Source: a virus. From it: 64,000 nt of DNA. This document shows positions 10,980-50,946 of the stretch, piece by piece (the stretch's first letter is position 1; each line of letters begins with the position of its first letter). The DNA is taken from positions 32,001 through 96,000 of IMG/VR virus record IMGVR_UViG_3300046535_001869; one strand, 5' to 3'. The notes beneath the pieces were generated by a model. The model saw only the letters and a list, made by a program, of their open reading frames with translations, had not been told where the DNA came from and searched no databases. Made by a program: the position numbers and the translations under genes.

Positions 10980-11007
10980 TGAGATCTCTCCTCGGTTGGT
11001 ATGACCA

Positions 11008-11036: not shown

Positions 11037-11039
11037 CTA

Positions 11040-11270
11040 CTAATTCTGGTCGCGCGCCTCGGCGATCGCCTCTGCGGCCTCGTCCAGGGTCCCGGCGATC
11101 AGGCGGTCGAGGCTATCCTGCCCGACCGGCGGCGGGCGCAGCTTGGCCCGCTTGCGCAGGCGGACGGCGTACCACGTCAGCGCCTCGCGCATAGGCCCGA
11201 GCATGTACGCCGGCAGGACCACGGTCACCGGGGTGTGGTCGCGGGTGTCGGTCACGGCAGTGGCATCCAT
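11040..11270 (-). CDS. hypothetical protein
   Basis: - strand chain ORF. Confidence 0.5.
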   Translation of the reverse strand: MDATAVTDTRDHTPVTVVLPAYMLGPMREALTWYAVRLRKRAKLRPPPVGQDSLDRLIAGTLDEAAEAIAEARDQN

Positions 11271-11632
11271 AGCATCGGCTCCTCTCCATCATCGGTGAAG
11301 TCGTCGTTCGAGTGGGTAATCCAGCGGTTCGCCTTGTACGTCGTTCCCCAACGACCGACGTGGGCGCGCAGCGGCGTTGTGGTGTATCCGCTCGGCCCGG
11401 CAAGGAGGACGAAGGTCCCGTCGCGCGGCGCGGTCTCGATTGAGAGCCAGTTTGCGCGGTTCAGCGCATCGATGATCATCTGCGGCGAGTCGGGATCGCC
11501 GCGCGTCGTCCAGGCGATGATGGCCGGATCGGTCCCGGACATCGGATCTTCGTGGTCCTCGATAGCCCTGGCGTCGCGCCATGGCTCGATCCTTGGGTTT
11601 CGGTCTCCCAGGCGATATCTCAGGTTAGACAT
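11252..11632 (-). CDS. DUF551-like phage protein
   Basis: WLSIETAPRDGT...PMLWMPLP; start ATG 11632 after GAGGAGG. Confidence 0.65.
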   Translation of the reverse strand: MSNLRYRLGDRNPRIEPWRDARAIEDHEDPMSGTDPAIIAWTTRGDPDSPQMIIDALNRANWLSIETAPRDGTFVLLAGPSGYTTTPLRAHVGRWGTTYKANRWITHSNDDFTDDGEEPMLWMPLP

Positions 11633-12551
11633 TAACGAACCTCCTCGCGTTGAGCATCCGGTAGCCACGGACCAGCTCCTCGATCCCGCGGTCGAGGTCC
11701 TCAATAAGAGCAAATCCAGCTTGGTATAGTCGTTCTCCAGAGACCGCATAGTCGCGCTTGTCCGGGTCCTGGCGCAGCTCAGCCTCGTGATAGATGAAAC
11801 CTGGAACGTGGGTCGCAATGATCTCAACGAGCTGTCGCTTCGTAACGTTACCACCAACGACGTTGAACGCCCGACTGCCCATCGCTCCATAATTCTCCGC
11901 TGCATGGATAAACGCCCGCGCCACGTCACGCACATGAACCACCGACCGCCGGTGGTGGGCCTCGAATAGCGTCACCGAACCGTCGGTCACGGCACGGTGG
12001 ACGAAGTCGTTTACGAGCAGATCAATTCTCATCTTTGGCGACATCCCGAAGACGGTCGCGAGCCGCAGTGATACGCCACCGAGCTCGAGAACCCGCTCCT
12101 CGGCCTCGCACTTCGTCGTGCCATAGAGCGAGACCGGCCGTAGCGGGGTATCCTCGTCGCACGGCTTGTTGGACCCGGACGCGCCATACCCAGAGTTTGT
12201 GTTCGGATATATGATACGCTGGTCCTTCGACAGGATCTTGGTAAGCCCGAGGATCGCGCCCAGGTTGACGTCGCGCGCGGCCCATGGGTCGGCAGCGCAC
12301 GCCGACGCACCGACGATAGCTGCCAGAGGCACGACTACGTCGACCTTGGCAACTAGCTCCGCGACCAGACGCAGATCACGCACGTCGCCGCGGACCGGGG
12401 TGAAGATCGGGTACTGGCAGCAAGCGGCCAGGGACGGGCTGGCGGCGCTGAACCTGTCCAGGACGGTGACCGCGTGCCCCGCGCGGAGGAGCTCCGGGAC
12501 GAGGATGGAGCCGATGTAGCCAGCGCCTCCGGTGATCAGATAGCGGGTCAT
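11625..12551 (-). CDS. NAD-dependent nucleotide-sugar epimerase/dehydratase/reductase (extended SDR)
   Basis: ITGGAGYIGS, YGTTK (YxxxK), LRLATVFG, VHVRDVARA. Confidence 0.9.
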   Translation of the reverse strand: MTRYLITGGAGYIGSILVPELLRAGHAVTVLDRFSAASPSLAACCQYPIFTPVRGDVRDLRLVAELVAKVDVVVPLAAIVGASACAADPWAARDVNLGAILGLTKILSKDQRIIYPNTNSGYGASGSNKPCDEDTPLRPVSLYGTTKCEAEERVLELGGVSLRLATVFGMSPKMRIDLLVNDFVHRAVTDGSVTLFEAHHRRSVVHVRDVARAFIHAAENYGAMGSRAFNVVGGNVTKRQLVEIIATHVPGFIYHEAELRQDPDKRDYAVSGERLYQAGFALIEDLDRGIEELVRGYRMLNARRFVNV

Positions 12552-12688
12552 TTAACAATCCTCCTTAGGGCAACGCCTATCGAAATAGCTAATGATATCA
12601 TAGCTAGTGGACAGAAATACAAAAAGCCATCACACCACCAAGGAAAATCCGGAAGACAACCATTCCATATCCAAATAATCCAATTCAT
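12548..12688 (-). CDS. 46 aa AT-rich membrane peptide (not in the ORF track)
   Basis: MNWIIWIWNGCLPDFPWWCDGFLYFCPLAMISLAISIGVALRRIVK; ATGA overlaps at both ends. Confidence 0.5.
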   Translation of the reverse strand: MNWIIWIWNGCLPDFPWWCDGFLYFCPLAMISLAISIGVALRRIVK

Positions 12689-12867
12689 TTTACCATCTGC
12701 CTTAACCTCCGCGCGGCCTCTCGCGCCTGGCTCGGCGGGCCGTACTGCGACCCGCGCGACGACTGGTTCGGGACCGGCTCGCGCGGCTGGGCTAGCCTGG
12801 CGCTGCGCGCTCGGCGGAACGACGCGCGGTGCTCGTTGCCGGGTCGGGGTTCTTGGGTTTGGGTCAT
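12685..12867 (-). CDS. small basic hypothetical protein
   Basis: GAGGGAG RBS. Confidence 0.5.
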   Translation of the reverse strand: MTQTQEPRPGNEHRASFRRARSARLAQPREPVPNQSSRGSQYGPPSQAREAARRLRQMVK

Positions 12868-12990
12868 CTATACTCCCTCAGTATGGCCAAGTTTTCGTAC
12901 GATATATACTGCGCGCAATGAAAAATCCGAGCGCGTAACCGAGCGTCATGCCACAGAATATCCCAATCAACAGCGCTTCCTCAGGTCCGA

Positions 12991-13611
12991 TCATAATCTA
13001 AGCTCCCGCCGCGCCCGCTCCAGCTCGGCTGGCGTGCCGATGTCGACGAAGTAGCCATCGAGCCGCACGTCGGCGAACCCGGACGGGTGGCCTGTGATGA
13101 ACTCCTCCAGCGAGAGGGTCTCTGCATCGACGTCGTCGATCACCGAGCGGCGCAGCACGTAGAGGCCGGCGGGGGTACCGTCCCGAAGGCGTGCCACGAG
13201 ACCGGCGACTGGTCCCTTCGGACAACTAAGCCACCCGTTCTTTACCATGTTGAAAAGCGGGCGCGGATCCACGTCGAAGAACGTGTCCCCATTGGCTAGG
13301 ATGAACGTCTCATCGAGGCGATGGCGGGCGTACCATAGCGCGCCGCCGGTCCCGGCGTCCGGGACCGGCTCGATAGCGACGTAGATCGGGACGCCGAGGC
13401 GTCGGTCCGCCTCGCGAGCGTACTCCACTACCTTCATCGCCTCGAAGCCGGCGAGCAGGAGGAAGCGGTCGCACCCGTGGTCGCGCAGGTGGGCGATGAC
13501 GTGGTCGAGGAACGGTACCCCGCCGACCTCGAGCAGAGGCTTCGGGGTGGAGGCGGTCAGCGCACCGAGGCGGGTGCCCCGGCCACCGACGAGGATCGCG
13601 GCCTGGGTCAT
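12991..13611 (-). CDS. sugar-1-phosphate nucleotidyltransferase (HddC-like)
   Basis: ILVGGRGTRLG, PKPLL, GTGGAL, ANGDT, FVDIGTP. Confidence 0.88.
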   Translation of the reverse strand: MTQAAILVGGRGTRLGALTASTPKPLLEVGGVPFLDHVIAHLRDHGCDRFLLLAGFEAMKVVEYAREADRRLGVPIYVAIEPVPDAGTGGALWYARHRLDETFILANGDTFFDVDPRPLFNMVKNGWLSCPKGPVAGLVARLRDGTPAGLYVLRRSVIDDVDAETLSLEEFITGHPSGFADVRLDGYFVDIGTPAELERARRELRL

Positions 13612-13783
13612 CTCCCATACTCCCCGAACGGCCCGCGCGGCTCCTCGGGGTCTGGGTGCATGGTCAACTCGGCGAACACGTCGCGGTAGTCGACGTCGTC
13701 GAACTCCGCGGCGCGCGGGTCGTACTCGACGATGTTCGGGATGACGTTCCCGAACGGGAAGGGGTGGGTCTTAGTCCGGCGCA

Positions 13784-13966
13784 TCATGGCTTCACCTGCG
13801 CCGCACGGATCTCATCCTTCAACTTACGCCAGCGTTTCGCCGCGCGCATATATCGCATCATCAGGTCATCTGGGACCTCTGCGTGATCGAACCCGCCGTA
13901 GCCGTCGTCGCTCTTGGACGCGACCGGCTCCATCTCGCCGTCTAGGTAGTCCCACTGTATCTTCAT
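13784..13966 (-). CDS. hypothetical protein
   Basis: CCGAGGAGAAACCTCATG leader. Confidence 0.65.
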   Translation of the reverse strand: MKIQWDYLDGEMEPVASKSDDGYGGFDHAEVPDDLMMRYMRAAKRWRKLKDEIRAAQVKP

Positions 13967-13982
13967 GAGGTTTCTCCTCGGG

Positions 13983-14327
13983 TTAATTCAGCTCTTGCGC
14001 TGATCCCAGAAATTCCGCCACCGTACGGCAACGGGACATGGAGGTAAAGTAATCTAGATGGCGTTCCATGCCATCTGGACCTGATCGGCTGACTCTAGCC
14101 ATTTCAATCTCGCCGTTGTCAGTGCGCGAGACCTCGGTACCGACGTATACTCCCAACCTTCTGTAGAAGTATTCTGCCTCGAGCGGAGTGCGCATACCTG
14201 CGGGAGCTGTTATAGTAAATTCGCAGGTTCGATTACCGTAACTTAACAGCACCCAGCTGCGGGCCTGGACGGTCGCGGTGGTTAAGACAAGAGCGGTCGC
14301 TGTAGCCGCAATGAGCTTGGTAAACAC
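13983..14327 (-). CDS. exported protein with signal peptide
   Basis: GTG behind the CCGAGGAGAGACCTCA leader; FTKLIAATATALVLTTATVQA signal peptide; lower GC. Confidence 0.65.
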   Translation of the reverse strand: MFTKLIAATATALVLTTATVQARSWVLLSYGNRTCEFTITAPAGMRTPLEAEYFYRRLGVYVGTEVSRTDNGEIEMARVSRSGPDGMERHLDYFTSMSRCRTVAEFLGSAQELN

Positions 14328-14372
14328 TGAGGTCTCTCCTCGGGTTTGGGGTTCAGCTATCTCCTCTGGGGA

Positions 14373-14732
14373 TTAAGTTAAACGTTCTTTGGCTGCCGGA
14401 TCATCCGGCTCGTTGCTGTCGTCGTAGTTGTACGGGGACGGCTCGGCGTCGTGGTACCTGGCGAACACCACCCGGTCGATCGCCGGGGCGATCTCGCGCG
14501 CGGCGCGCTGGTCCCAGACGTAATGAGTAACGTCGGGCTCGCCGAAGACGCGGACCGCGTTCTCCCACTGCTGGGGATCGCGAAATCCGACGAAGTGCGT
14601 CGCGGGGCGGACGCCGTCCATCAGCAGATCGAGCAGCGTGGCGCCGGTAGACTTGCAGCAGCGCCGGGCGCAGGCGCCGGCCGTCGCGCAATCGCTGGCG
14701 TCTATGGGGCAGATCGGGCTAGGTTTAGTCAT
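14373..14732 (-). CDS. hypothetical protein
   Basis: HFVGFR...AVRVFGEPD..H..WDQRA...YDDSN phage-type motif. Confidence 0.6.
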   Translation of the reverse strand: MTKPSPICPIDASDCATAGACARRCCKSTGATLLDLLMDGVRPATHFVGFRDPQQWENAVRVFGEPDVTHYVWDQRAAREIAPAIDRVVFARYHDAEPSPYNYDDSNEPDDPAAKERLT

Positions 14733-14956
14733 CCCTCGTACTTCCTAGCTATGTCCATCATCGCGCCGTGCGACAGGTGCGTCGGTGGATTCGTCCTCAC
14801 TAGCTCCTGGAGCCTGAAGAACTCCTGGCTGAGCGCGGCGGACCGGATCGTGGTCAGGACGACCGCGATCCGGGTCTCGTTCATGCCCTCCTCGCGCATC
14901 ATCTCGATCGCGGTCCGGCAGCGGGAGACGAAGATGGCGTCATCGGCGGTGATCAT
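14729..14956 (-). CDS. hypothetical protein, paralog of 10528-10791
   Basis: CRTAIEMMREEGMNET...IRSAALSQEF. Confidence 0.65.
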   Translation of the reverse strand: MITADDAIFVSRCRTAIEMMREEGMNETRIAVVLTTIRSAALSQEFFRLQELVRTNPPTHLSHGAMMDIARKYEG

Positions 14957-14961
14957 AACGA

Positions 14962-15357
14962 CTACCCACGATCCTCGAGATAGCCGATCAGGTCCGCGCA
15001 GAGGCGGTTCCAGCCGCGCTCGGCGTCCTCGGCGGGGATGGTGATGTCGGCCCTCGGGTCGATCGCGAGGACCGCCTGGGCGACGCGCTTCAGCGACAGG
15101 CGTAGGATGGCGAGCTCGTGGGCCGAGGTGCGGCCTATCAACTCGGCCGTCTTACGGTCTTTCCCGGCCGCCCACGCGGCGTGGGCCAGCGGGGCGCGGT
15201 TATACGGGGTCGCGCGACCACCGTGGTGATAGCCGCGCCGGTAGGCCGAGGTCAGCCCGGTACCCGCGGGGTTATCCAGCTCGGGGATCTCGGTCTTCGC
15301 GATATAGACCGCGTAGACCTTCTCCTGGCCGGGATAGGCGAAGGTTCGATTATTCAT
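14962..15357 (-). CDS. hypothetical protein
   Basis: Start ATG 15357 behind the CGAGGAGAGACCTC leader. Confidence 0.65.
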   Translation of the reverse strand: MNNRTFAYPGQEKVYAVYIAKTEIPELDNPAGTGLTSAYRRGYHHGGRATPYNRAPLAHAAWAAGKDRKTAELIGRTSAHELAILRLSLKRVAQAVLAIDPRADITIPAEDAERGWNRLCADLIGYLEDRG

Positions 15358-15569
15358 GAGGTCTCTCCTCGTATGCGCTCCCAGAGCCGGCGCAGCGCGC
15401 GGATCCACCGCGGATAGCGCAGCTCGCTCAGATCGTGGCAGTATTGGCGCAGGTGCGCTTCCTTGACGCCCGCGACGTTGCGCTGGTGGGCCGCATCGAC
15501 CGCGCGCCACTCGGCCGGGGTCCTCGGGTAGGAGCCGCCGTTGAGCTTCGCGTAGTATTCGGCGCTCAC
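15354..15569 (-). CDS. hypothetical protein
   Basis: GTGA-coupled start at 15569. Confidence 0.5.
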   Translation of the reverse strand: MSAEYYAKLNGGSYPRTPAEWRAVDAAHQRNVAGVKEAHLRQYCHDLSELRYPRWIRALRRLWERIRGETS

Positions 15570-15778
15570 GACCCGCGCTCCAGCTCGGCGAGCATCTCGA
15601 CGACGCGGTCGAGGACCACGTGGTACGGCGCGTCGATCACGACGCGATGGACCTGGGTCCCGGCGACGAAGCGCCGGCCCTCGTAGTGGGCCGCGGTGCG
15701 AACCGCGACGGCGATCCCGATCGGGGTGTCGCTCACGGTCGCGCGGTAGGCGGCGCTCGGGGAGAGGACGGTGGTCAT
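15566..15778 (-). CDS. hypothetical protein
   Basis: AGGGGA RBS. Confidence 0.55.
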   Translation of the reverse strand: MTTVLSPSAAYRATVSDTPIGIAVAVRTAAHYEGRRFVAGTQVHRVVIDAPYHVVLDRVVEMLAELERGS

Positions 15779-15789
15779 CGCCTGATCCC

Positions 15790-16008
15790 CTAATAGAAAC
15801 TATTGTAGATCGTCTTACAGCCGCCGCGTGGGCCGACAAAGACGCACTCATGATATTCGACCTTGAAGCCGGGTTGGCTGTAGGTACGGGTCACACTCAG
15901 CGTATCTGTACCGCCAACCCGGTCCACCTCGTAACTGCGAAGCTCGTAGTTACCACCGTACGGTACGAGCCTGAGGTTATGTACGATTTCGATTTGACGG
16001 TCGGTCAT
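15790..16008 (-). CDS. hypothetical protein
   Basis: Start ATG 16008 behind the conserved leader; FVGPRGG. Confidence 0.65.
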   Translation of the reverse strand: MTDRQIEIVHNLRLVPYGGNYELRSYEVDRVGGTDTLSVTRTYSQPGFKVEYHECVFVGPRGGCKTIYNSFY

Positions 16009-16034
16009 GAGGTATCTCCTCGGTTGGTAGGGGT

Positions 16035-16063
16035 AGTATCGCGCCATTGCAGCGAAAAGTAAA
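16035..16063 (-). promoter_or_regulatory. phage early promoter, copy 4 (TTTACT-17-GATACT)
   Basis: Near-identical over about 65 bp to 2965-3030. Confidence 0.8.
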
Positions 16064-16083
16064 CCCCTATTTTGCCCGAATTT

Positions 16084-16395
16084 TCAGTCGACCCGGGAGA
16101 CCTCAAACGAACCATCGGGCTGGACGACCGCGAGCCAAGAGCAGTCGTAGAACCGGATCACCTCGTCGCGCAGGCGCGTCTCGGCCAGGACCGCGAGCGG
16201 GTCATCGCCTGGGTACGACAGGCGACCGTCCGCGAGCATCTTGAACTTCGGTATCGGCCGCCATCCGCCGCCGTGGCGGTAGTTCTCGTCGATCTGTTCG
16301 CGCGCCGGGCGCGAGTCGCGTTCGTCGAGGAACGCGGGGACCAGACCGAGGAGGTCCATCGACGCGCTCGGGTGCCTCATGATCCATTTCATCAT
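16084..16395 (-). CDS. hypothetical phage protein
   Basis: AAGGA RBS; YRHGGGW...YPGDDP...DGSFEVSRVD. Confidence 0.7.
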   Translation of the reverse strand: MMKWIMRHPSASMDLLGLVPAFLDERDSRPAREQIDENYRHGGGWRPIPKFKMLADGRLSYPGDDPLAVLAETRLRDEVIRFYDCSWLAVVQPDGSFEVSRVD

Positions 16396-16450
16396 GGTTT
16401 TCCTTTTATTTGAGGTTCAAACCAAGGTTGGCCAGACCAGTTGTTGATTC

Positions 16451-16789
16451 TTAACGTTTTATGGGTGGCCGATCCTGCGCCCGGAACATGGCCGTCCAGA
16501 CGTCCGAGTAGGCGTCGTGGCGCCGGTGGTCGCGTGGCGCGACCGTATTCTTAAAGTTCGGATAGTCGATCTCGTTGATCCGATCGGCCATCTCGGCCCA
16601 GACCTCGTAACGCGGGACCAGCGCCCGGTAGCGATAGTCCTTCTGCGGGGTCGTCGAGACCCTCGCAGAGGGGAACACACGCCGGATGTCGCCCTTGAAG
16701 CGGGCGCGGACTAGGAGCTGGTCTCCGGTCAGGTCGTCGTCGGGCGCGACAATCGAGAACATCGCGTCGGAGAGGAAGATCCACATCAC
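16451..16789 (-). CDS. conserved hypothetical protein
   Basis: MWIF...FSIV...LLVRAR...DYRYRA...IDYPNFK. Confidence 0.7.
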   Translation of the reverse strand: MMWIFLSDAMFSIVAPDDDLTGDQLLVRARFKGDIRRVFPSARVSTTPQKDYRYRALVPRYEVWAEMADRINEIDYPNFKNTVAPRDHRRHDAYSDVWTAMFRAQDRPPIKR

Positions 16790-17106
16790 GGCACCCGCGC
16801 CGCGCGCAGCGCCGCCTCGTAGGCGTCGATCCCGCCCGCGTGCGCCTCGTCGAGGAGGCGCGCGACGGTGCGCTCCGTGAAGGGAATCGAGTCGCCAGCG
16901 CGGCCCATCGACGAGAAGCGCAGCGCGCCGTTCTTGCCGACGTAGACGCGATGGCGCAGCAGGTCCTCCTGCGGCTTGAGGAGGCTCCGCGTCTCGGCGG
17001 TCGGCCTGAAGACGACCTTCTTCGTCACGTGGGTCGCGGTGTCGACGACGTAGCCGCGCGCGAGGAGCGCGGTGGTCAGGAGCTGCTGGCGGGTGGGCTT
17101 GGGCAT
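16786..17106 (-). CDS. hypothetical protein
   Basis: Start ATG 17106 behind CCGAGGAGAGACCTC. Confidence 0.65.
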   Translation of the reverse strand: MPKPTRQQLLTTALLARGYVVDTATHVTKKVVFRPTAETRSLLKPQEDLLRHRVYVGKNGALRFSSMGRAGDSIPFTERTVARLLDEAHAGGIDAYEAALRAARVP

Positions 17107-17123
17107 GAGGTCTCTCCTCGGTT

Positions 17124-17300
17124 TCAAAGTCCAGCTTCGATGGCGCTGAGGATCTCGCGAGCCCAGCGCTTGACCTTCGGCTCGTACTCGCCGGTGATGA
17201 AGTGCTCGGTCAGATCGCGCGCGTGGCGCAGGGCCTCCTCCTGGCGGATCAACTTCTGACCGACGAGCTCGTCCTGGAGGTCGTGACGGGTGGTCTTCAT
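17124..17300 (-). CDS. hypothetical protein
   Basis: Start ATG 17300 behind CCGAGGAGATACCTC. Confidence 0.65.
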   Translation of the reverse strand: MKTTRHDLQDELVGQKLIRQEEALRHARDLTEHFITGEYEPKVKRWAREILSAIEAGL

Positions 17301-17327
17301 GAGGTATCTCCTCGGATTGGTAGGGGT

Positions 17328-17356
17328 AGTATCGCGCCGTTGCGGCGAAAAGTAAA
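17328..17356 (-). promoter_or_regulatory. phage early promoter, copy 5 (TTTACT-17-GATACT)
   Basis: Repeat-family match. Confidence 0.8.
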
Positions 17357-17505
17357 CCCCTAATTTCGCGATCTTGGAAGATTTCTGCGGAGCCCGAGCT
17401 CGAACCGCACAAGCGGCGCGTGCCACCACGGCAGCGGGCCAAACGTGCGCTGCCACGCGGCGCGGGTCTCGGCCTGCCGCCAGATCCGGCGCCAGTCGAG
17501 CCGGC

Positions 17506-18495
17506 TCACGTCGCCCACCCGTTTACGACGACCGTCGAGCCGGAGCGGGCGATACCCACCGGCACGAACACCGCGCTCGGGAGCGCGGCGCGGACCCGCG
17601 TGTGGTCCTCCGGGCACGCGAATAGCAAACAAAATCCCCCTCCGCCTGCTCCCAGCAGCTTCCCGCCGATCGCACCGGCCGCGCGGGCTCGCTCGTACAG
17701 CTCGCCGACTGTCGGGGTGGCTACCAGGGGTGAGAGGGCTTGCTTTAATCGCCAGGCCTCGTCCAGCAGCTCGCCTAGCGCCTCTATCGGCGTTGTCGAG
17801 GACAGCAGGATCGTCTCGGCCTCGTCGACCTGCTCGCGCATGCGGGCTAGGTACGGGGAGATCGGGGAGAGGTCGAGCGAGGCGGCGATCTGCGGCGCAT
17901 CTCTGACTTCTCCCGTAAACGCGAGTAGCAGATGATCGAGTAGCTCGCGCTGGCGGGCCTGGGGGACCATCGGGCGCCGGACTTCCCATCCGGACGGCCC
18001 GAAATCGACCCGGAGCAGATCGCCGTAGGCGGCGAAGATCTGGTCCTGTTCGCCGCCCAATTCCGCCATCACCGTGCGCTCCAGGTGGATCGCGCGGCGG
18101 GCGAGGAGGCCCGGGTGGTCGTGGCGGCCCGAGAGGGCATCGATCGCGGTGATCAGGCCACAGATGAAGGCTGACGATGATCCGAGGCCCGCGCGGGAGG
18201 GCAGGTCCGCCGAGTATGTGCACTCGATGTTAGTAGGGCGTCCCAGCTGGGTCAGGACGGCGCGGGCGGCCGGGTGGATCAGATCGTCGGCGTGCTCGGT
18301 CAGCTCGATCCTGGAATATACGAGCCTGACGTTGTGCTCGTGAAATGCGGGGAGCTCCCTCACAGTCAAGTAGACGTAGTGGTCGATGGCGAACCCGAGG
18401 ACCGCACCGCCGCGCGGGGACTCGTTGTAATAGGCCGGCGTGTCTGTGCCGCCGCCGAAGAGGCTCACCCTTAGTGGCGTTCGCGTGATGATCAC
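17506..18495 (-). CDS. GHMP sugar kinase (HddA-like, heptose-7-phosphate kinase family)
   Basis: RTPLRVSLFGGGTD, DLPSRAGLGSSS, GEQDQ, GGKLLGAGGGG. Confidence 0.9.
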   Translation of the reverse strand: MIITRTPLRVSLFGGGTDTPAYYNESPRGGAVLGFAIDHYVYLTVRELPAFHEHNVRLVYSRIELTEHADDLIHPAARAVLTQLGRPTNIECTYSADLPSRAGLGSSSAFICGLITAIDALSGRHDHPGLLARRAIHLERTVMAELGGEQDQIFAAYGDLLRVDFGPSGWEVRRPMVPQARQRELLDHLLLAFTGEVRDAPQIAASLDLSPISPYLARMREQVDEAETILLSSTTPIEALGELLDEAWRLKQALSPLVATPTVGELYERARAAGAIGGKLLGAGGGGFCLLFACPEDHTRVRAALPSAVFVPVGIARSGSTVVVNGWAT

Positions 18496-18878: not shown

Positions 18879-19108
18879 TGCTTCTCCCCATAGATCAGGC
18901 GCGTGACCCGCTCGCGCAGGCCCTCGCAGAACGCCTCGACGAGCTCGTCGGGCTGCTTGTTGTAGCGCACCGCGTTGAACGCGATCAAACCGGCGACCAT
19001 GCCCTCAACCGCGACCATCTCGGTCTCGAACTGACCGATCGCAGCCATCTTGGCGCCGAACTCCCGGATCAGGGAGGCGGTCAGGTCATTGATCTCATCC
19101 GTGGTCAC
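18875..19108 (-). CDS. hypothetical protein
   Basis: Coupled ORF. Confidence 0.6.
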   Translation of the reverse strand: MTTDEINDLTASLIREFGAKMAAIGQFETEMVAVEGMVAGLIAFNAVRYNKQPDELVEAFCEGLRERVTRLIYGEKQ

Positions 19109-19437
19109 TCGACCAACCCGCGGATCGTCGCGTCGTACAGGTCGAGGACGTCCTCTACGGTCCGCTCGGGCGCGTCGTTCCAGTCAGCGACGGGACAGGA
19201 GATGCCCCGGCCCACGAGTGTCTTCCTTAGTGCGTCGAAGGCGACCTGGCGGCGGACGGTATCCTCGTAGGTGCACATCCGGCCGCCGACCACCGCAAAG
19301 ATGCCCCCTACTGCGCAGGCTCGTCCGTTATCAATGGAGACATTCTGGCACCAGCCGTGGGTTACGATGTACTCGCGAGCGGCGCGGAGGTCCTCGACGA
19401 GGGTACTCGGGGCGAAGGTAGTGCTGTCTAGGGGCAT
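19105..19437 (-). CDS. DUF6197-like hypothetical protein
   Basis: GWCQ...CAVGGI...WNDAPERTVEDV. Confidence 0.6.
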   Translation of the reverse strand: MPLDSTTFAPSTLVEDLRAAREYIVTHGWCQNVSIDNGRACAVGGIFAVVGGRMCTYEDTVRRQVAFDALRKTLVGRGISCPVADWNDAPERTVEDVLDLYDATIRGLVE

Positions 19438-19446
19438 ATCGGACTC

Positions 19447-19746
19447 CTATGATTTAACCAGCTTGACGACCTTCTCGGCGGGTGGCTCGTCGACCCAGTC
19501 CAGGAAGGTGCGGACCGCGGCGAAGTCGGGGAAGATCTTGGCGCGGGCGTAGTCCTCGCCCGGCTGAAGCATCAGCAGGTGGAGGTCGACGAGGTACGAG
19601 CCGATCTTATTGGGCTCGCCGGTCTGTGGATTAAGGCACTCGACGAGATACATCGTCTTCGTGACCCGCTCGCGGAACCGAACCAGAGTCCAGTGCCCCT
19701 CGTCCGGGTCGTCGATCATGGCGAGGAGGTTGATCATGGCCACCAT
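19447..19746 (-). CDS. hypothetical protein
   Basis: - strand chain ORF. Confidence 0.55.
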   Translation of the reverse strand: MVAMINLLAMIDDPDEGHWTLVRFRERVTKTMYLVECLNPQTGEPNKIGSYLVDLHLLMLQPGEDYARAKIFPDFAAVRTFLDWVDEPPAEKVVKLVKS

Positions 19747-20057
19747 CCGTTATTGGTATGAACCTTTGTTGCCAGATAGCCTAGAATCGTGAGACGAGTA
19801 TCGATCCAGGGCGCGCCGCACGAGGAGCAGACGCAGACGTCGAACCTACTTGCTTCCTCTGGTATAGTCTGACCCATGGCGTAGTTATGGAACATTTTTG
19901 TAACGATCACGTCCCCCTCGGGTCCTGGGTCTTGGCCGGCCGGGACCCCAACGGGGGCCGGTCGTATGACTACCTTCGTCTCGCAGATCCGGTGTCCATT
20001 CTCGCAGGTTATCTCGGTCCCAGCCGGTAACGGCCCGGAGTAACCGTCGTAAGTCAC
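19734..20057 (-). CDS. hypothetical Zn-binding protein
   Basis: CENGH and CSSCG. Confidence 0.55.
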   Translation of the reverse strand: MTYDGYSGPLPAGTEITCENGHRICETKVVIRPAPVGVPAGQDPGPEGDVIVTKMFHNYAMGQTIPEEASRFDVCVCSSCGAPWIDTRLTILGYLATKVHTNNGWWP

Positions 20058-21568
20058 TTCGCCTCCTCCAACAGATCCCGTTTCAGCGTATACGACGTCA
20101 TCCTACGGATCTCCTCGACCGCCGCTTGGCCGAACTTGTCGCGGATCATCGCGAGGTAGCCCGGGTCGGTGAAGTAGCACGTGAAGGCGGTGTCGCGGAA
20201 GCGGAGGACCTCAGCGGCGGGGACGGTCTCGGTGTCTAGTGGACGAGATACGGAATTGTGCTGAGAATATCCGGCCCAGGACGATGGAGGCGTCCATCCC
20301 TCGGCGAGGGCCTGGTCGTATAGAGGCGAGCCGGGATAGGCCATCGCGCAGTAGAAATTGGCAAACTCGGTTCGGAGGGAGCGCGCGAGATCGAGGGTCT
20401 CTCCCATCGTCTCCATCGTATCGCCGCGCAGGCCAAAGATATAGTTCCCAATCACGTTGATCCCCGCGGCCTGGATCATCGCAACAACCCGGCGGATCTC
20501 GGCGTTATCGTCCTGGCCGGCGCGCAGGCGCTTGTTCGCCCCGGCGCGGACGTGGGCCGAGCCGGCCTCTATGCCGAGGGCTAACCATTTGATCCCAGCC
20601 TTGCGTAGAAGTGGTAAGTCGTCGTCGTGGACCGTGTCGGTACGAGAGTAGGCCCATATGTTCAGGTCGTCGGCGATCCCGGAGGCGATCAGCCGATGGC
20701 AGATCTCGCGAAAATGCCCGCGGTTCAAAACAAAGAGCTCGTCAGTTATCTTGAACGTTCGGATACCGTACTCGCGATAGAGCATCACGATCTCGTCGAC
20801 GACCTTGCGCGGATCGCGGCGCCGGTAAACGTTCGAGTGCTGGAATACGTTAATCATGCAGAAGTGGCACTTGAAGCTACACCCCAGGCTCGTGTGGATC
20901 GACGCGTAAGGCTGACGCCGCGTCGGGTCCTCCAGGCACTGCCAGTTGTGCGCCCGGTAGAGGTGCATCGGCAGCAGGTGCCACGCCGACGAGCCGTGGA
21001 GATCGCAGTCGAGGTCGAGGAGCGGTGCGCGGGGATTGGCGACCGCTCGCTCGTCCCCGCCGCAGGTCGGGTGGGACCACACCAGGCCTGGGATCTCCTG
21101 CGGGTACCAGACGCCACCGTGCTTGTGGATTTGCTCTAGGAGTCCCTCGATCGTCAGTGGTCCCTCGCCGTCGCAGACGAAGTCAACCGGCTCCTCGCGC
21201 AGCGTCCTTTCTGGTAGCGCCGAAGGGTGGTTACCGAGCATGAGGATCGGAGGGGGGAAGAGCAGGACGCGGATGGCCTGAGCTACGGCCCGCGCTCCCG
21301 TCATTTGCTGTGTACTCGCCGATGGTTGATGACCGTGGACGCATATCGCAACTAGACGCGGTCGATAGAAGGTAACCTTGATAGCAACCTGCTCCGGTGA
21401 AAGGTGTTCGGCCTCCTGGTCGATGATCGCGACGGTCTTCCCACGATCTAGAAAGTAGGAAGCGATAATTCGACACCACAGAGCCTGTTCGATAGCCGTG
21501 AGGGTGCCACCAAGCTCGCCGTAGATGCCGTGCACCGCGCCGGGATGGATCAGGACCAGGTCGATCAT
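20054..21568 (-). CDS. cobalamin-binding radical SAM enzyme
   Basis: N-terminal B12-binding-like domain (GNHPSALPE, DGEG), SLGCSFKCHFC (CxxxCxxC), YPGSPLY. Confidence 0.9.
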   Translation of the reverse strand: MIDLVLIHPGAVHGIYGELGGTLTAIEQALWCRIIASYFLDRGKTVAIIDQEAEHLSPEQVAIKVTFYRPRLVAICVHGHQPSASTQQMTGARAVAQAIRVLLFPPPILMLGNHPSALPERTLREEPVDFVCDGEGPLTIEGLLEQIHKHGGVWYPQEIPGLVWSHPTCGGDERAVANPRAPLLDLDCDLHGSSAWHLLPMHLYRAHNWQCLEDPTRRQPYASIHTSLGCSFKCHFCMINVFQHSNVYRRRDPRKVVDEIVMLYREYGIRTFKITDELFVLNRGHFREICHRLIASGIADDLNIWAYSRTDTVHDDDLPLLRKAGIKWLALGIEAGSAHVRAGANKRLRAGQDDNAEIRRVVAMIQAAGINVIGNYIFGLRGDTMETMGETLDLARSLRTEFANFYCAMAYPGSPLYDQALAEGWTPPSSWAGYSQHNSVSRPLDTETVPAAEVLRFRDTAFTCYFTDPGYLAMIRDKFGQAAVEEIRRMTSYTLKRDLLEEAK

Positions 21569-21777
21569 CAGAACTCCTTCATCAACGTGACGATGATCCG
21601 GCCGCGGCCGAACGCGTCGCGCTCAAACTTAAAACCAGACTGGAACGAGAGCCTGGACGCCTCCTCCCAGAGCTCCAGGACCGGCGCGAGCGCCTCCTCG
21701 ATCCGACGCTTCAGGTCGACGGCGACCTCGGCGTCGCTCCGGGTCGTCAGCAGGCGAACCGGCGGGTCGTCGTTCAC
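21568..21777 (-). CDS. hypothetical protein
   Basis: Coupled ORF. Confidence 0.55.
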   Translation of the reverse strand: MNDDPPVRLLTTRSDAEVAVDLKRRIEEALAPVLELWEEASRLSFQSGFKFERDAFGRGRIIVTLMKEF

Positions 21778-22022
21778 TTCACCCTCGTCAGCTTGAGCAC
21801 GTTCGGAACCCGCCCGATGCCCCTGGTCTCGGCCAGCACCGCGTCCAGCTGTCGGTTCAGCGCGTCACAGCGCGTGTAGAGAGTCGTCTTGGACACGCCG
21901 CCGTAGTCGCGCCAGATCCCTGCGACAACGTTCTTGGACACGCCGAAGCGTTCCGCGACCACGGACTGGATCTCGCCGTCGCCGAGGAGGTCGAGGATCG
22001 CGGTGCGGCGCTCTGGGGTCAT
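21774..22022 (-). CDS. GcrA-like N-terminal HTH protein
   Basis: VVAERFGVSKNVVAGIWR resembles the GcrA IA..LG.SRNAVIG helix. Confidence 0.5.
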   Translation of the reverse strand: MTPERRTAILDLLGDGEIQSVVAERFGVSKNVVAGIWRDYGGVSKTTLYTRCDALNRQLDAVLAETRGIGRVPNVLKLTRVK

Positions 22023-22453
22023 CCGGCAAACTTCTCGCGAGCCCTCATACTGAACCAGTGGTGGACGTTCAGGATAGCGGCTTGCGCGATCTCATCGATT
22101 TGCTTTGATGAACCATCGCTACCCTCGGTATCAGCGACGAGCTCCCCATTAAGATCGCCATCATTAAACGAGAATACGAGCTTCACACTGCCACGGTCCG
22201 CGAGAGCGGTTCGTATAGCCTCTAGGGCTGGTTCCTTGAAGCCGGAGACAGCAAGCTCAGTCGCGGCGCGAAATCGCATCCCCCGCTCGGCAGCAACGAT
22301 CGTTACTAGTTGATCTGCGGTTGCGTCCGGCAGCTTTCCGCGAACGTACTCGGTGGGATCAAGGTCCTCGTCCGTGAGATATGCCGTAACGCTCCGTTCG
22401 CTGAAGATCTCTCCTTCAGCTCCGACTCTAAACGTCAATTTTGCTAGATGCAT
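22019..22453 (-). CDS. hypothetical protein
   Basis: Start re-set to ATG 22453 after a purine-rich AAGGA RBS. Confidence 0.55.
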   Translation of the reverse strand: MHLAKLTFRVGAEGEIFSERSVTAYLTDEDLDPTEYVRGKLPDATADQLVTIVAAERGMRFRAATELAVSGFKEPALEAIRTALADRGSVKLVFSFNDGDLNGELVADTEGSDGSSKQIDEIAQAAILNVHHWFSMRAREKFAG

Positions 22454-22639
22454 GATGTCTTCCTTACGAAATAAGCCGCCCGCGCCGCGCGATACTCCTC
22501 GCGCGTCGGCCGCGGGGTCGGCGATGCGGGCCGGACGCGGATGAACTCTCGCATATCGGCCTCGTTGACGCAGCGTTAGGCGAGCCACTCGCGGCCGGCG
22601 TGGAGGAAGGTGTGGGTCATGATTCTTTATCATAGTCGT

Positions 22640-23812
22640 TCATAGTGTGTTCTTTAAAATTTTTACAGCTTTTTCAATAAGATCTGGGATTGGCCACGGC
22701 GCGCAGCCCAGGAACAGGCCAGTATCGTGGATCCGATCGGCGTTCGGCGTCGGGTTCGCCTCGCGCCAGGGCGCGCCGTAGGGATGACGGGTAAAGGACC
22801 CGCCGGTAGGTAAGCGTGCGTCGATCGAGGCTTCGCGCAGGGCCGCGACCAGGGCACGGCGGCGCTCGCGCGACTCGACCGTAAACGGCAGCCCGAACGG
22901 ACTGGGAGTCCCCTCGATCCTCGGGTGGACGATCGGTAGATCAGTCGTGAGGCTACGAAATAGGTCGGCGTTGGTGCGACGCGCGGCGATCATCTCGGGG
23001 AGCTTCCGTAGCTGCTCGCGGGCGACCGCGGCGTGGATCTCGACTGGCCGCAAATTGTACCCGAAAATGGTGAAATTGTAGTGCTCCTCAACCTCGGCGC
23101 TGCCCCACCCGGCGTTCCCGTGGTCGCGCAGGAGGCGCATCGTCCGGGCTAGGTCGTCGTCGTCGGTCAGCGCGGCGCCGCCTTCCCAAGCGCTAATCTG
23201 GTGGGAGTAGAAGAAACTAACGGTGGCGATGGCGCCGAACTCGATGGCGTCTACCCCAGGAGGCTTGCCCGCAAAGGCGCCGATCGACTCGCAGGCATCT
23301 ACTAGGAGCGGGATGTTGAGACGAGTAGCCAAGATCTGCCAGTCGACAAGATATGCCGGGTTGCCGAGGACCGGAACGGTGACGAGGAGCGACAACTTGT
23401 CCCACTCCATTTCGACGAGGTTTCCGGCGGGCGCATTCCACGTGTCGTCTACGTCGACAACTAGCGGCGCGAGGCCGTGCTGGATCGGGGGAGCATAGGT
23501 CGTGGCCCAGGCGATGGCCGGCGCGGCGAATCGGGAGATCTCCAGGGGAGGATCTCCCATCCACTGCTCGCCGTTCCGGATCCACCCATCCCCAGCGCGA
23601 TGCGCCAGCGCCACCACCGCGATGAGGTTAGCCGACGACCCGGAGTTGACCATCACCGCGTGGCGGCGGCCGTGGAATGCCGCGAGCTCGGCCTCCAGCG
23701 CCTCGGTCTCCGGCCCCATCGTCAGGCGGTCGGAGGCCAGCACGCGGGCGACGGCGGCGGCCTCTTCCGCTCCGTGCGCGCTGAAGGCTGTCGGAAAGTC
23801 CCACGTCGTCAT
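22640..23812 (-). CDS. DegT/DnrJ-fold PLP enzyme, ColD/RfbH-like NDP-4-keto-6-deoxysugar 3-dehydratase
   Basis: MVNSGSSANL, VDACESIG and GYNLRP; SFFYSHQISAWEGG has His at the Schiff-base Lys position, as in ColD/E1. Confidence 0.85.
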   Translation of the reverse strand: MTTWDFPTAFSAHGAEEAAAVARVLASDRLTMGPETEALEAELAAFHGRRHAVMVNSGSSANLIAVVALAHRAGDGWIRNGEQWMGDPPLEISRFAAPAIAWATTYAPPIQHGLAPLVVDVDDTWNAPAGNLVEMEWDKLSLLVTVPVLGNPAYLVDWQILATRLNIPLLVDACESIGAFAGKPPGVDAIEFGAIATVSFFYSHQISAWEGGAALTDDDDLARTMRLLRDHGNAGWGSAEVEEHYNFTIFGYNLRPVEIHAAVAREQLRKLPEMIAARRTNADLFRSLTTDLPIVHPRIEGTPSPFGLPFTVESRERRRALVAALREASIDARLPTGGSFTRHPYGAPWREANPTPNADRIHDTGLFLGCAPWPIPDLIEKAVKILKNTL

Positions 23813-24082
23813 TAGTATACTCCCAGACCGTGCGCTACGTCGTTCGCGAACAGTAGGACGACCATGAGCAGGACGACCGCACCGATCGCGTATGCTAGTG
23901 CTTCCATTACACCCTCACGTTCCAGATCCGGAGGCCTAGTCGACAGAGCTCGGTGAAGGCCAAACGACGCTTAATGTGAAACTCGTCTCCGGGGTTAATA
24001 GGGTAAGCTGGATTCTCAATGGCATCGCGGGTCCGCTGGTCGACATTCCGCATTAGGTCCTCGTAGCGGCGCTCCAGGTCGG

Positions 24083-24667
24083 TCATCCCTGGTCCTCCGT
24101 CTCGTATAGCTCCGCCCTCTCGACGAGGATCGTCGACGTCGGACGACGAAGGGCATCCATATAATAGGGGACGATCATGTACGGCTCGAATAGTTCTATC
24201 ACGTGGATAGTCCGCAGCATCGCGCGGAGCGCAGCGACGTAACCGGTGGGAACAAGGTCGACCTCGTCCGAGAGATAGTTGCCGCCCTCAGGGTCGACGT
24301 GCTGCGGACCTGGGTCGAGCGGGATCGGGGAGGCGATCGACGTACGGATGATGACCTTCGGGCGATAGTCGGAGTAGAGCGGGATCGCGTCGAGGTGGAG
24401 GACGAGCTGATTCATCGCCAGCAGAAGGAAGTTGATTCGCGGGTAGACCGCTACCGGGATCGCGCCGGTCAACGACAGCCCCGTGGCGATTCCCATCTGA
24501 GTATCTTCAAAGACAGGCGTCTCGATCATCCTCTCGCGCGGAACGTCGCGGAACGTCGCGGTCATCGCGGTGCCGCCGGCTACGATGGACTGGCCAAGAA
24601 ACATGACGCGAGGGTCCTCGGCGAGGAGGGTCATCGCCTCGGTCAGGCGATCACGATAGGTGGTCAA
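24083..24667 (-). CDS. TPP-dependent enzyme beta subunit (E1-beta/transketolase pyrimidine-binding domain only)
   Basis: FLGQSI, IETPVFEDTQMGIATGLS, YPRINFLLLAMNQL, GPQH. Confidence 0.85.
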   Translation of the reverse strand: MTTYRDRLTEAMTLLAEDPRVMFLGQSIVAGGTAMTATFRDVPRERMIETPVFEDTQMGIATGLSLTGAIPVAVYPRINFLLLAMNQLVLHLDAIPLYSDYRPKVIIRTSIASPIPLDPGPQHVDPEGGNYLSDEVDLVPTGYVAALRAMLRTIHVIELFEPYMIVPYYMDALRRPTSTILVERAELYETEDQG

Positions 24668-24685
24668 AACTCTTTCCTCGTGACG

Positions 24686-25387
24686 TTAGTCATCATCATG
24701 TAGTCGTAATTTCCCTGGAGCACCAAGGGCATGAATGCCCAACCGCGTAACCCAGTCTAGTATGTGGCACCATCGCCGATCGTCTTTCTCGAATCGGGGA
24801 ACCTTACCATCAGCGACATCAAGGCACACACAGGCGACGCAATTCAATTGCGCATCAGCCATTCCAATCTGCTCCATCAGTTCGATGTAGCGAAGATCAT
24901 CGGCGGTCGGTTCAATTGGCACCATGCCATGCGGGTCAGGCAGAGGTACAGGTTCGCCCAACTTAACGTAGGAGTTTGTAGTTTCCCAATGCCGTATCGT
25001 TTGCAAGCATCGCTCGTACCAACGCACCCATTTTTCTGGTTCCCACACGATGTTCGCATTCATCGAGCGTCCGAATCGCTTGTACCAGCGTATCTCGACG
25101 CCCTCGAACGAGAAATTCGGAGCGTCGGCTAGTTGCTGATCCCAGTCGGCATCTTCGGGCGAACCACCCCAATTATAATAGTGATTCCAAACAATCCCCT
25201 GCGGCAGTGGCGTTAGCCCCCCTTCGTCTGACCACATATCAAAATCGCGACCCGCTTCCCATTGTTTCTGCTGGGTATTCCAATATGCTCGATTCAGGTG
25301 CGCGCGTAACCCCTCTATCAGTGCATCAACGTAATCTGGCAGCGGTGCGCCGACAGGGTTGTTGTGAATTATTTGTCCTAATTCCAT
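24686..25387 (-). CDS. hypothetical protein (lower-GC insertion between the E1 subunit genes)
   Basis: 233 aa ORF; IRWYKRFGRSM. Confidence 0.65.
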   Translation of the reverse strand: MELGQIIHNNPVGAPLPDYVDALIEGLRAHLNRAYWNTQQKQWEAGRDFDMWSDEGGLTPLPQGIVWNHYYNWGGSPEDADWDQQLADAPNFSFEGVEIRWYKRFGRSMNANIVWEPEKWVRWYERCLQTIRHWETTNSYVKLGEPVPLPDPHGMVPIEPTADDLRYIELMEQIGMADAQLNCVACVCLDVADGKVPRFEKDDRRWCHILDWVTRLGIHALGAPGKLRLHDDD

Positions 25388-25441
25388 TTGTAAAACCAGC
25401 GTCCTTTAAGCGCGGTCACAGTCCGGCACGAAGGATTTTCG

Positions 25442-26032
25442 TCAGAAATCGACGCGGACACCCGCACCAGCGTGCGGGAACTTATTCTTATAGAAGTATC
25501 GATGCTCCTCTGCCGCCCCCGGGTGTGCGCCCCAAGCCTCCTGCGTATCGGTCATGACGGAGAGGCCGTTATCTTCGACGACGAACGAGATCGGCAGCGC
25601 CTGGCGCCGCGCGTAGGTCGTCGCCTCGTGATATGCTCCAGTCACTGCTGTCATGTCGCCACAAAATACATGAACCTTGGCGTCAGACCCCTGGCGTCTT
25701 AACCCCACCGCGATCCCCACGGCGATCGGCAGGATTCCGCCGACGATCGCCGACGAGACGACCCGGTGCTCGAGGAAGCACAACGTGATCGAGCGGCCGG
25801 CGAGGATCGCGGCGCGGACCTCGTCCGAGGGGACTTCGGCCAGGAGGCAGTGGTAGTGCATTCGCCATGACCCACAGACCCAGTCGCCGCGGGCCGCGTC
25901 GTGGTGCGCGGCGAAGTAGTCGATCAGCTGCTGCTCGTTGCCGCCCGAGAGGTGTACCGGGTGTGGGATCTCGGCGCGGTTGAACCGCTCGGCGATGTCC
26001 GCCTCGAAGGCTATCAGGTCGGCGGGGGTCAT
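25442..26032 (-). CDS. TPP-dependent enzyme alpha subunit (minimal E1-alpha)
   Basis: PVHLSGGNE, WRMHYH, SAIVGG, GD...EDN TPP motif; start ATG 26032 after GGAGG. Confidence 0.85.
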   Translation of the reverse strand: MTPADLIAFEADIAERFNRAEIPHPVHLSGGNEQQLIDYFAAHHDAARGDWVCGSWRMHYHCLLAEVPSDEVRAAILAGRSITLCFLEHRVVSSAIVGGILPIAVGIAVGLRRQGSDAKVHVFCGDMTAVTGAYHEATTYARRQALPISFVVEDNGLSVMTDTQEAWGAHPGAAEEHRYFYKNKFPHAGAGVRVDF

Positions 26033-26061
26033 CTTCGAGTCCTCCTTCGAGCAGGTTCCCG

Positions 26062-50945: not shown

Positions 50946-50946
50946 G

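Follow-up and report, generated by a model that had tools for sequence, protein, structure and literature searches.

Do seven enzyme genes that lie scattered among small open reading frames (ORFs) in a phage genome belong to one pathway and, if so, what does that pathway make? The question is raised by positions 11625-26032 of the window, by which we mean the whole stretch of 64,000 nucleotides analyzed here, i.e., bases 32001-96000 of the IMG/VR virus record IMGVR_UViG_3300046535_001869 (109,299 bp, with direct terminal repeats). An earlier note on this DNA had proposed a multi-step route to a rare sugar, possibly a branched 3,6-dideoxysugar. The present analysis shows that the same seven genes are contiguous in bacterial loci and in other viral contigs, and we consider it probable that in this phage they represent a single conserved module for the synthesis and remodeling of guanosine diphosphate (GDP)-heptose.

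All seven genes lie on the minus strand and occupy ca. 6.4 of the 14.4 kb of the region. Each is above the Pfam cut-off for its family and has its catalytic motifs intact, in agreement with the positions and families that the earlier note had given. In their order along the minus strand, the genes are:

25442-26032, minus strand: thiamine-diphosphate enzyme alpha (PP-domain), E1-alpha-like, 196 aa; Pfam E1_dh 5.6e-10, TPP_enzyme_C
24083-24667, minus strand: thiamine-diphosphate enzyme beta (Pyr-domain), E1-beta-like, 194 aa; Pfam Transket_pyr 1.1e-6
22640-23812, minus strand: ColD-type sugar-nucleotide 3-dehydratase, pyridoxamine phosphate (PMP)-dependent; DegT Pfam 3e-52
20054-21568, minus strand: cobalamin-binding radical S-adenosylmethionine (SAM) enzyme, class B; B12-binding 5.5e-11, Radical_SAM 8.2e-17
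17506-18495, minus strand: HddA-like heptose-7-phosphate kinase (GHMP); Pfam GHMP N and C domains
12991-13611, minus strand: HddC-like heptose-1-phosphate guanylyltransferase; NTP_transferase 5.9e-13
11625-12551, minus strand: extended short-chain dehydrogenase/reductase (SDR), predicted sugar-nucleotide C4-dehydrogenase; Epimerase Pfam 1.4e-32

The seven genes in bacteria and in other viruses

The phage proteins were used as queries against a set of 80 bacterial loci, each surrounding a ColD homologue. When all phage ORFs were compared with these loci by tblastn, the matches consisted of the seven genes, the shadow ORFs on their opposite strands, and two stray ORFs, one of which is the neighboring ribonucleotide reductase. 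The grouping of the seven genes is far beyond chance. The bacterial order is alpha-beta-ColD-SDR-radical SAM-kinase-transferase, all seven being contiguous in, e.g., loci L106, L114, and L178, while L111, L121, L125, and L128 each gave matches to six of them. The carriers include many Alphaproteobacteria, such as Azospirillum, Magnetospirillum, Rhodospirillaceae, and a Hyphomicrobiaceae metagenome-assembled genome (MAG), and the module is also carried by a Terriglobia MAG and an Elusimicrobiota MAG. The radical SAM enzyme and the nucleotidyltransferase form a single fused ORF of 735 aa in an uncultured Rhodospirillaceae MAG (L124:5300-7507). That bacteria keep these genes as one operon had been assumed in the earlier note; it is now observed with exactly these seven, and the shared operon places the E1-like alpha/beta pair and the B12 radical SAM enzyme in the same pathway. 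Some bacterial variants are devoid of the radical SAM gene and others of alpha and beta, so that the module is combinatorial around ColD, SDR, and kinase. In Azospirillum halopraeferens (L111), the operon lies amid a SIS (GmhA-like) gene, two genes of glycosyltransferase family 2 (GT2), ManC, a large GT1 protein, and RmlC, which makes the locus one for a surface polysaccharide.

In two viral contigs unrelated to this phage (L202 and L196), the full set of seven occupies 6-7 kb; alpha (ca. 200 aa) and beta (ca. 185 aa) are as short as in this phage, and the transferase has 206 aa. A SIS gene lies inside the L202 module. Together with the bacterial loci, these contigs bear out the proposal that the seven genes form one pathway, and the co-location of the module in both bacteria and viruses is not what independent, patchy distributions would give. 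Five IMG/VR phages (G001-G005), which have structural genes in common with this phage at 40-65% identity, all have alpha, beta, ColD, SDR, and the radical SAM gene contiguous or nearly so, and in G002 the genes overlap. These relatives were found with an alignment query; a single-protein scan of IMG/VR returned none. The kinase was found by scanning in hundreds of viral contigs. Comparison of the region with GenBank phages by megablast gave no match, and tblastn of the pyridoxal phosphate (PLP) enzyme and the radical SAM enzyme against phages gave distant cyanophage and Streptomyces phage matches only.

In the trees of alpha, ColD, and the radical SAM enzyme, the phage falls in a viral clade adjoining alphaproteobacterial genes. 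In the ColD tree, this phage falls together with the five relatives and three further viral contigs (at 100), and the alpha tree splits the viral from the bacterial forms. In the radical SAM tree, the phage lies in a viral clade with L202, L192, L195, and L220, with the five relatives as sister group and then an alphaproteobacterial clade.

The layout is real and not an assembly artifact, since contigs from a soil run of an independent study (run X2) tile positions 10500-27500 with zero differences and bridge the gene junctions. Near-completely, the same DNA is present in a rhizosphere run and a soil run from two different studies; contig joints with sides of only 20-23 letters were counted as noise from other organisms. 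Between the seven genes lie 22 co-oriented ORFs, as the earlier note had it in describing the genes as separated by unrelated small ORFs, and because of these ORFs cluster-finding tools would miss the pathway here. The dispersal is a property of this genome and not a general one; other viral contigs have the module in compact form. Compared with L106, the SDR alone has moved and the other six genes have stayed colinear; by our own count, only 37 of the 5040 orderings are this colinear. Because six genes keep the canonical order, a once-compact operon that was later expanded by insertions fits the data, and it is most likely that the scatter arose through insertion of small ORFs into such an operon. 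Homing endonucleases were also considered as the cause of the dispersal and rejected, because the intervening ORFs are without any such family match.

Some further features of these loci can be mentioned here. The radical SAM enzyme of G005 (G005:C1:96345-98738, locus L005) consists of two matching blocks in one frame of 849 aa and probably contains an intein, L196 has a second B12 radical SAM gene with an intein (L196:13538-16588; Pfam Intein_splicing, Hint), and an ORF of 1006 aa with LAGLIDADG domains lies beside the L202 module. A related bacterial cluster (L187-L190; G045:C1:6280001-6318000 and G156:C28:30001-62000) has a radical SAM enzyme at 38% identity, a kinase at 47%, an SDR at 49%, a different DegT at 27%, and no alpha/beta; it occurs in two genomes of 7.5-8 Mb whose GTDB family is shared with a Xanthobacteraceae MAG. 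The bradyrhizose operon of photosynthetic Bradyrhizobium, for an as yet unknown pathway, is reported to have 11 sugar-modification genes, including a "dTDP-glucose 4,6-dehydratase" (PMC4743980). A link between the two clusters was only a guess, from which no conclusion is drawn.

Enzyme assignments and proposed route

The kinase has the motifs PSRAGLGSSS (residues 99-108) and GAGGGG (residues 282-287), and its family profile matches the solved heptose kinases 4USM, 3K85, and 4N3O at 1e-47 to 2e-51, the next family being fucokinase at 1e-26. The signature GRGTRL is present in the nucleotidyltransferase, which among solved structures matches 6JQ8 and 5XHW best (6e-19; both named "putative 6-deoxy-D-mannoheptose pathway protein"), followed by mannose-1-phosphate guanylyltransferases. 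The 6JQ8 and 5XHW chains are taken to be HddC, and the phage enzyme is predicted to use GTP. These matches agree with the earlier proposal that HddA- and HddC-like enzymes activate heptose.

In the PLP enzyme, His204 (SFFYSHQ) sits where aminotransferases have the Schiff-base Lys, as had been noticed before; all of 27 homologues have it, and the ColD residue aligned with it is His188, which is mutated to Lys in PDB 2R0T. The family profile matches ColD (2GMS) at 1.1e-95 versus 2e-54 for E1 (3BCX), and the four [2Fe-2S] cysteines of the E1/RfbH type are not conserved, only C174 being near-invariant in the family alignment. The closest relatives are 66-71% identical. Thus, the assignment as a His-type 3-dehydratase holds for the ColD type and not for the RfbH/E1 type. 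From four independent assignments, the kinase being nearest to heptose kinases, the transferase to 6JQ8/5XHW, the SDR to 6VO6/6VO8 (see below), and the PLP family to ColD, the substrate is most likely GDP-D-glycero-D-manno-heptose rather than a cytidine diphosphate (CDP)- or thymidine diphosphate (dTDP)-hexose. A ColD-type enzyme without Fe-S cysteines likewise points to GDP as the carrier and heptose as the sugar, not to a CDP-hexose, and the SIS/GmhA genes in the Azospirillum locus and inside the L202 module were also counted in favor of GDP-heptose.

The SDR has the Rossmann motif GGAGYIG and the catalytic YGTTK. Its best solved matches are 6VO6 and 6VO8 (3e-88, residues 3-307, i.e., full length, ca. 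50% identity), the next being at 1e-22, and it matches 4,6-dehydratases only at ca. 1e-12. The description of this enzyme as an epimerase/reductase therefore gives way to that of a predicted C4-dehydrogenase. A 4,6-dehydratase was not found in the phage, which leaves the "3,6-dideoxy" part of the earlier proposal without support.

The two thiamine-enzyme subunits are strongly shortened. The likely start of alpha is the ATG at 26032, preceded by GAAGGAGG, and the homologue alignments begin at that residue. The chain of 196 aa aligns with residues ca. 35-200 of the bacterial alpha, which in the operons has 321-342 aa, and keeps the cofactor motif GDM-x26-EDN, invariant in six viral alphas. In beta, the C-terminal domain of E1-beta is gone (the bacterial-operon beta has 353-386 aa), while among solved structures it is most similar to E1-beta chains and retains the TPxxE glutamate; the motif is TPVFE in this phage, and TPVFE/PVxE is invariant in eight betas. 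The pair fails the full-length E1 architecture (alpha of ca. 320-370 aa; beta of ca. 325 aa with a transketolase-C domain) and is E1-derived, not an E1 component proper; the heterodimer has some 390 residues, where an E1 protomer has roughly 700. A model of the alpha-beta complex gives an interface score (ipSAE) of 0.81 against 0.00 for the best control, which may reflect the likeness to known structures, since E1 complexes are solved; of 80 solved complexes, 58 attain the ipSAE mark, as do 2 of 110 mismatched pairs. Three runs share at least 98% of the contacts, with a predicted local distance difference test score (pLDDT) of at least 86 for the partner. From the kept cofactor motifs and this model, the thiamine enzyme is probably intact. 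The radical SAM enzyme has an N-terminal B12-binding domain and the CxxxCxxC motif as CSFKCHFC at residues 230-237, and it is 52-58% identical to the cluster radical SAM enzymes of bacteria and viral contigs. It reached no NCBIfam model, the best being BchE with 131 against a cut-off of 481 bits.

The proposed route would start from heptose-7-phosphate given by the host through GmhA and a GmhB-type phosphatase, the first steps having to be supplied by the host because neither GmhA nor GmhB was found in the phage, in which a SIS scan was also negative. After activation, a Cj1427-like oxidation by the SDR at C4 would allow the ColD-type PMP enzyme to strip the C3 hydroxyl, giving GDP-3-deoxy-4-keto-heptose, which on the present assignments is a likelier intermediate than a 3,6-dideoxy sugar. 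The short E1-like alpha/beta pair would then add a two-carbon unit, probably derived from pyruvate, to the C4 ketone to form a branched tertiary alcohol, and the B12 radical SAM enzyme would modify a carbon, C-methylation being the simplest guess.

The first part of such a route has precedent in the capsular GDP-heptose pathways of Campylobacter jejuni (HddA, HddC, Cj1427, and the HS:5 C3-dehydratase; Raushel and Holden laboratories), where the same families carry out activation, C4 oxidation, and PLP/PMP-dependent C3 deoxygenation. Cj1427 oxidizes GDP-heptose at C4 using alpha-ketoglutarate, whereby the tightly bound NADH is recycled (PMC10680097), and together with a ColD-type C3-dehydratase it gives in vitro the very intermediate proposed for the phage, GDP-heptose and GDP-3-deoxy-4-keto-heptose having reported negative-ion m/z values of 634.08 and 616.08, respectively (PMC10680097; PMC10440746). 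However, the C. jejuni pathways, which belong to a bacterial capsule locus and not to a phage module, naturally pair the C3-dehydratase with a 4,6-dehydratase and end with epimerases and C4-reductases, without a thiamine enzyme or a B12 radical SAM enzyme. By analogy with yersiniose, the 4-ketone would be a natural acceptor for thiamine-dependent carboligation: in yersiniose A (YerE/YerF) and with ErwE and MyGE, a 3-deoxy-4-keto sugar nucleotide receives an acyl branch at its C4 ketone (PMC9306805). The YerE-type enzymes, in contrast, are single chains of another thiamine class that act on a CDP-3,6-dideoxyhexose, whereas the phage has a split, short E1 alpha/beta pair and probably GDP-heptose. 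Erwiniose and caryophyllose were rejected as products, these being made by YerE-type enzymes from long keto-acid donors and CDP-hexose (PMC9306805).

The GDP-colitose pathway of E. coli O55 (ColD, ColC) provides the closest solved relative of the phage PLP enzyme, with the catalytic His kept, but colitose, for which GDP-4-keto-6-deoxymannose is the precursor, is a 3,6-dideoxyhexose without a branch, and equivalents of Gmd and ColC are not present in the phage. E1-like pairs have been proposed to form two-carbon sugar branches in avilamycin (AviB1/AviB2), paulomycin, and aldgarose, and like the phage pair they would branch a sugar nucleotide outside a dehydrogenase complex; they belong to actinomycete clusters and consist of full-length subunits acting on dTDP-hexose or -pentose, whereas the phage subunits have 196 and 194 aa. 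In the literature covered, no description was found of this combination of enzymes, its occurrence in phages, the shortened E1 pair, or the linked glycosyltransferase family described below, nor of a characterized product of the bacterial operon.

Candidate transferase, acceptor, and competing explanations

Pfam scans of the phage for GT1, GT2, and GT9 were negative, as were six-frame scans of its genome for PF13524 and PF00534. The lack of any glycosyltransferase had been named in the earlier note as a refutation, and this does not apply, since a conserved protein with a predicted GT-B fold is present:

L101:148-1071, outside the window: candidate GT-B-fold glycosyltransferase, 307 aa; predicted fold

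Its AlphaFold2 model has a pLDDT of 94 and a predicted template modeling score of 0.91 with 40 sequences, a first fold with 5 sequences having given a pLDDT of 56. Foldseek returns 394 PDB matches at E <= 0.001, the top matches listed being all GT-B (SenB, PimA, TarM, SdgB; best 4e-8), and in the Atlas the protein falls among "glycosyl transferase family 1" (GT1-like) clusters at 0.97-0.98, while its sequence profile has no match in the PDB. Its homologues number over 400 and are without annotation; several of them lie on contigs as long as those with PLP enzyme homologues. The gene is kept beside the cassette in all five relatives, with two copies in G005 and a paralogue inside the cassette of G004, and the module is bordered by glycosyltransferase-like genes of PF13524 in G001, G004, L196, and L202, G001 and G004 having GT2 genes as well. 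The model and this linkage suggest that the GT-B-fold protein is likely the transferase for the sugar.

In the relatives, the GT-B gene and the cassette are located between the capsid genes and the head-completion/sheath genes. Since they thus sit inside the head-tail structural module, a virion protein is favored as the acceptor, a view that is taken from gene position only; a host surface glycan is possible. In this phage, the cassette slot of the relatives (L101:1086-8903) is filled by five genes without relatives there (119, 660, 209, 292, and 1191 aa), one of which has a short alpha-L-arabinofuranosidase-B-like stretch (3.4e-9). Mycobacteriophages such as Che8 have phage-encoded glycosyltransferases with genes by the structural genes and use host sugar nucleotides. 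The glycosyltransferase genes beside structural genes in G001, G002, G004, and G005 resemble this arrangement, but the phage module would make its own rare sugar. Tentatively, one may go further and picture an undescribed nine- or ten-carbon, C4-branched, C-methylated 3-deoxyheptose, which might even be cyclised between the branch and C7 to a carbocycle-fused, bradyrhizose-like sugar, and which a new GT-B sequence family puts on virion proteins, as a conserved capsid/neck glycan in a large clade of soil myoviruses, made with the smallest known E1-type thiamine enzyme; in this full form we regard the proposal as rather doubtful.

The same pathway might instead serve to remodel the O-antigen or capsule of the host, by way of the GT-B protein or host transferases, for superinfection block or receptor masking, leaving the virion undecorated. 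The bacterial homologues do lie in polysaccharide loci with GT2, GT1, ManC, and RmlC, and the phage genes are found outside the late module, in the replication/nucleotide-metabolism region with NrdJ and ThyX as neighbors. However, the cassette and transferases of the five relatives are placed between the major capsid region and the head-completion/sheath genes, and no flippase, polymerase, or ligase gene was found among the phage proteins scanned; we regard this use of the pathway as a serious rival, though a rather unlikely one. A product that modifies the phage DNA, or acts as a free small molecule and is not meant for glycosylation of protein or polysaccharide, is quite improbable. The GT-B fold is also that of the T4 DNA glucosyltransferases, but the top Foldseek matches listed are sugar, lipid, or protein glycosyltransferases; moreover, a ThyA-type hydroxymethylase was not found in this phage or in four relatives, while ThyX is present, so that DNA, named earlier as a possible target, is unlikely to be glycosylated. 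Heptose-derived nucleoside antibiotics do exist (PMC9978623).

A different pathway would start from a CDP- or dTDP-hexose and lead, through a 4,6-dehydratase, a 3-dehydrase of the E1/RfbH type, and then two-carbon branching, to a yersiniose-type branched 3,6-dideoxyhexose. Of the NCBIfam models, RfbH does score best with the PLP enzyme (1.8e-49), and two-carbon branching of a 4-keto-3-deoxy sugar by YerE is established (PMC9306805). However, the profile comparison given above favors ColD over E1, with the Fe-S cysteines not conserved, the sole SDR is nearest to 6VO6 and far from the 4,6-dehydratases, the kinase and transferase fit heptose and GDP, and the thiamine enzymes YerE, ErwE, and MyGE are of another class (PMC9306805); we consider this pathway improbable. 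That the seven are unrelated auxiliary genes sharing a region by chance, as the 22 ORFs between them and the absence of two of them from the five relatives might suggest, is hardly credible in view of the contiguous operon in many bacteria and two viral contigs, the gene fusion, and the conserved order. A phosphonate pathway (thiamine decarboxylase, B12 radical SAM enzyme, and nucleotidyltransferase) was rejected, no PEP (phosphoenolpyruvate) mutase having been found and the SDR and PLP enzyme being of sugar-nucleotide types.

A number of observations weigh against a GDP-heptose module and its proposed transferase. GmhA, GmhB, and a branch reductase, including one like YerF, were not found in the phage. 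The kinase and nucleotidyltransferase were not found by tblastn in G001-G005, whose substrate must then be host-made and need not be heptose. All enzyme specificities are assigned by homology. The best NCBIfam model for the kinase, HddA NF049969 (7e-23), is matched with 81.5 bits against a cut-off of 600, which makes the kinase a distant HddA member at best, and HddC NF049965 is matched by the nucleotidyltransferase with 72.4 bits against 300, only the N-terminal 116 residues being aligned. All trees were built with FastTree only, those of the kinase and transferase having long unresolved branches. That 6VO6/6VO8 are Cj1427 of Campylobacter jejuni is a presumption, with which the depositor's generic name is compatible. 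Alpha has no significant solved match in the PDB by sequence, and the strong shortening of alpha and beta could mean an altered reaction. The nearest solved structure to the radical SAM enzyme is AprD4, a dehydratase and not a methylase, at only 2e-15. Finally, the GT-B-fold protein has no Pfam match at 0.01, and hhalign against PF13524 proteins gives a probability of 1.3%.

If the GDP-heptose reading is correct, phages carry and exchange a complete rare higher-sugar pathway that depends on many cofactors (PLP, thiamine, cobalamin, SAM, and NAD), which goes beyond the borrowing of host sugar nucleotides. For biocatalysis, the alpha/beta pair would then be attractive as a minimal carboligase of the E1 type. 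Alphaproteobacteria of soil and freshwater (Azospirillum, Magnetospirillum) commonly carry the operon, and the small phage versions offer a convenient route to an unknown surface sugar of bacteria, while the linkage to a new GT-B family within virion modules suggests that glycosylation of the virion is conserved in an uncultured group of myoviruses.

Genome setting and intervening ORFs

By its structural genes, the phage is a myovirus:

L101:11063-12817: tail sheath, myovirus marker
L103:9941-11038: major head protein, myovirus marker
L101:8900-9295: head protein, myovirus marker

The seven genes are part of a long minus-strand array that also contains a UvrD-like helicase, ThyX, and, outside the pathway, a ribonucleotide reductase:

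27455-30529, minus strand: class II (B12-dependent) ribonucleotide reductase (NrdJ); Ribonuc_red_lgC 1.4e-113, Ribonuc_red_2_N 5.2e-28

This reductase and the radical SAM enzyme (20054-21568) are two cobalamin-dependent phage enzymes, and because of them the phage depends on its host for B12. No RNA run is among the sequencing runs listed as containing this phage DNA.

The 22 intervening ORFs often have overlapping stop and start codons and a high G+C content at third codon positions (GC3), and an ORF with a helix-turn-helix domain lies immediately upstream of the region. The following were singled out:

12685-20057, minus strand: co-oriented small ORFs, mostly ORFans (the span also has the transferase and kinase genes)
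18492-18878, minus strand: phrog_12889 ORF (PHROG of unknown function), by family search
19105-19437, minus strand: DUF6197 ORF, by family search
22019-22633, minus strand: ORF of 204 aa separating the dehydratase gene from the radical SAM gene; GC3 0.57, atypical
24686-25387, minus strand: ORF of 233 aa between alpha and beta; GC3 0.53, atypical

None of the small ORFs at 12685-20057 was matched in the bacterial loci. The two ORFs of atypically low GC3, which are larger and lie inside the cassette, have no Pfam, NCBIfam, or PHROG match, and the Atlas model of the one at 24686-25387 has a pLDDT of 0.35 and no usable match; both may be recent insertions or non-genes.

The window has a G+C content of ca. 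63% and contains no tRNA and no Rfam family. At 38000-46000 and 50000-56000 the G+C content drops from ca. 0.63 to 0.48-0.55, with few high-GC3 ORFs, and these stretches too are without tRNA or Rfam family. On the plus strand at 58407-61421, an ORF of 1004 aa combines Phage_portal_3 (5.5e-73, residues 196-563) with a type IB topoisomerase core (Topoisom_I 1.8e-19, Top1B_N_bact, residues 747-984) in an apparent portal-topoisomerase fusion, whose portal part is conserved in the relatives. At L103:4289-7864 (genome 100289-103864), an ORF of 1191 aa has a NUDIX hydrolase at residues ca. 405-550 and a C-terminal head maturation protease at residues ca. 990-1173.

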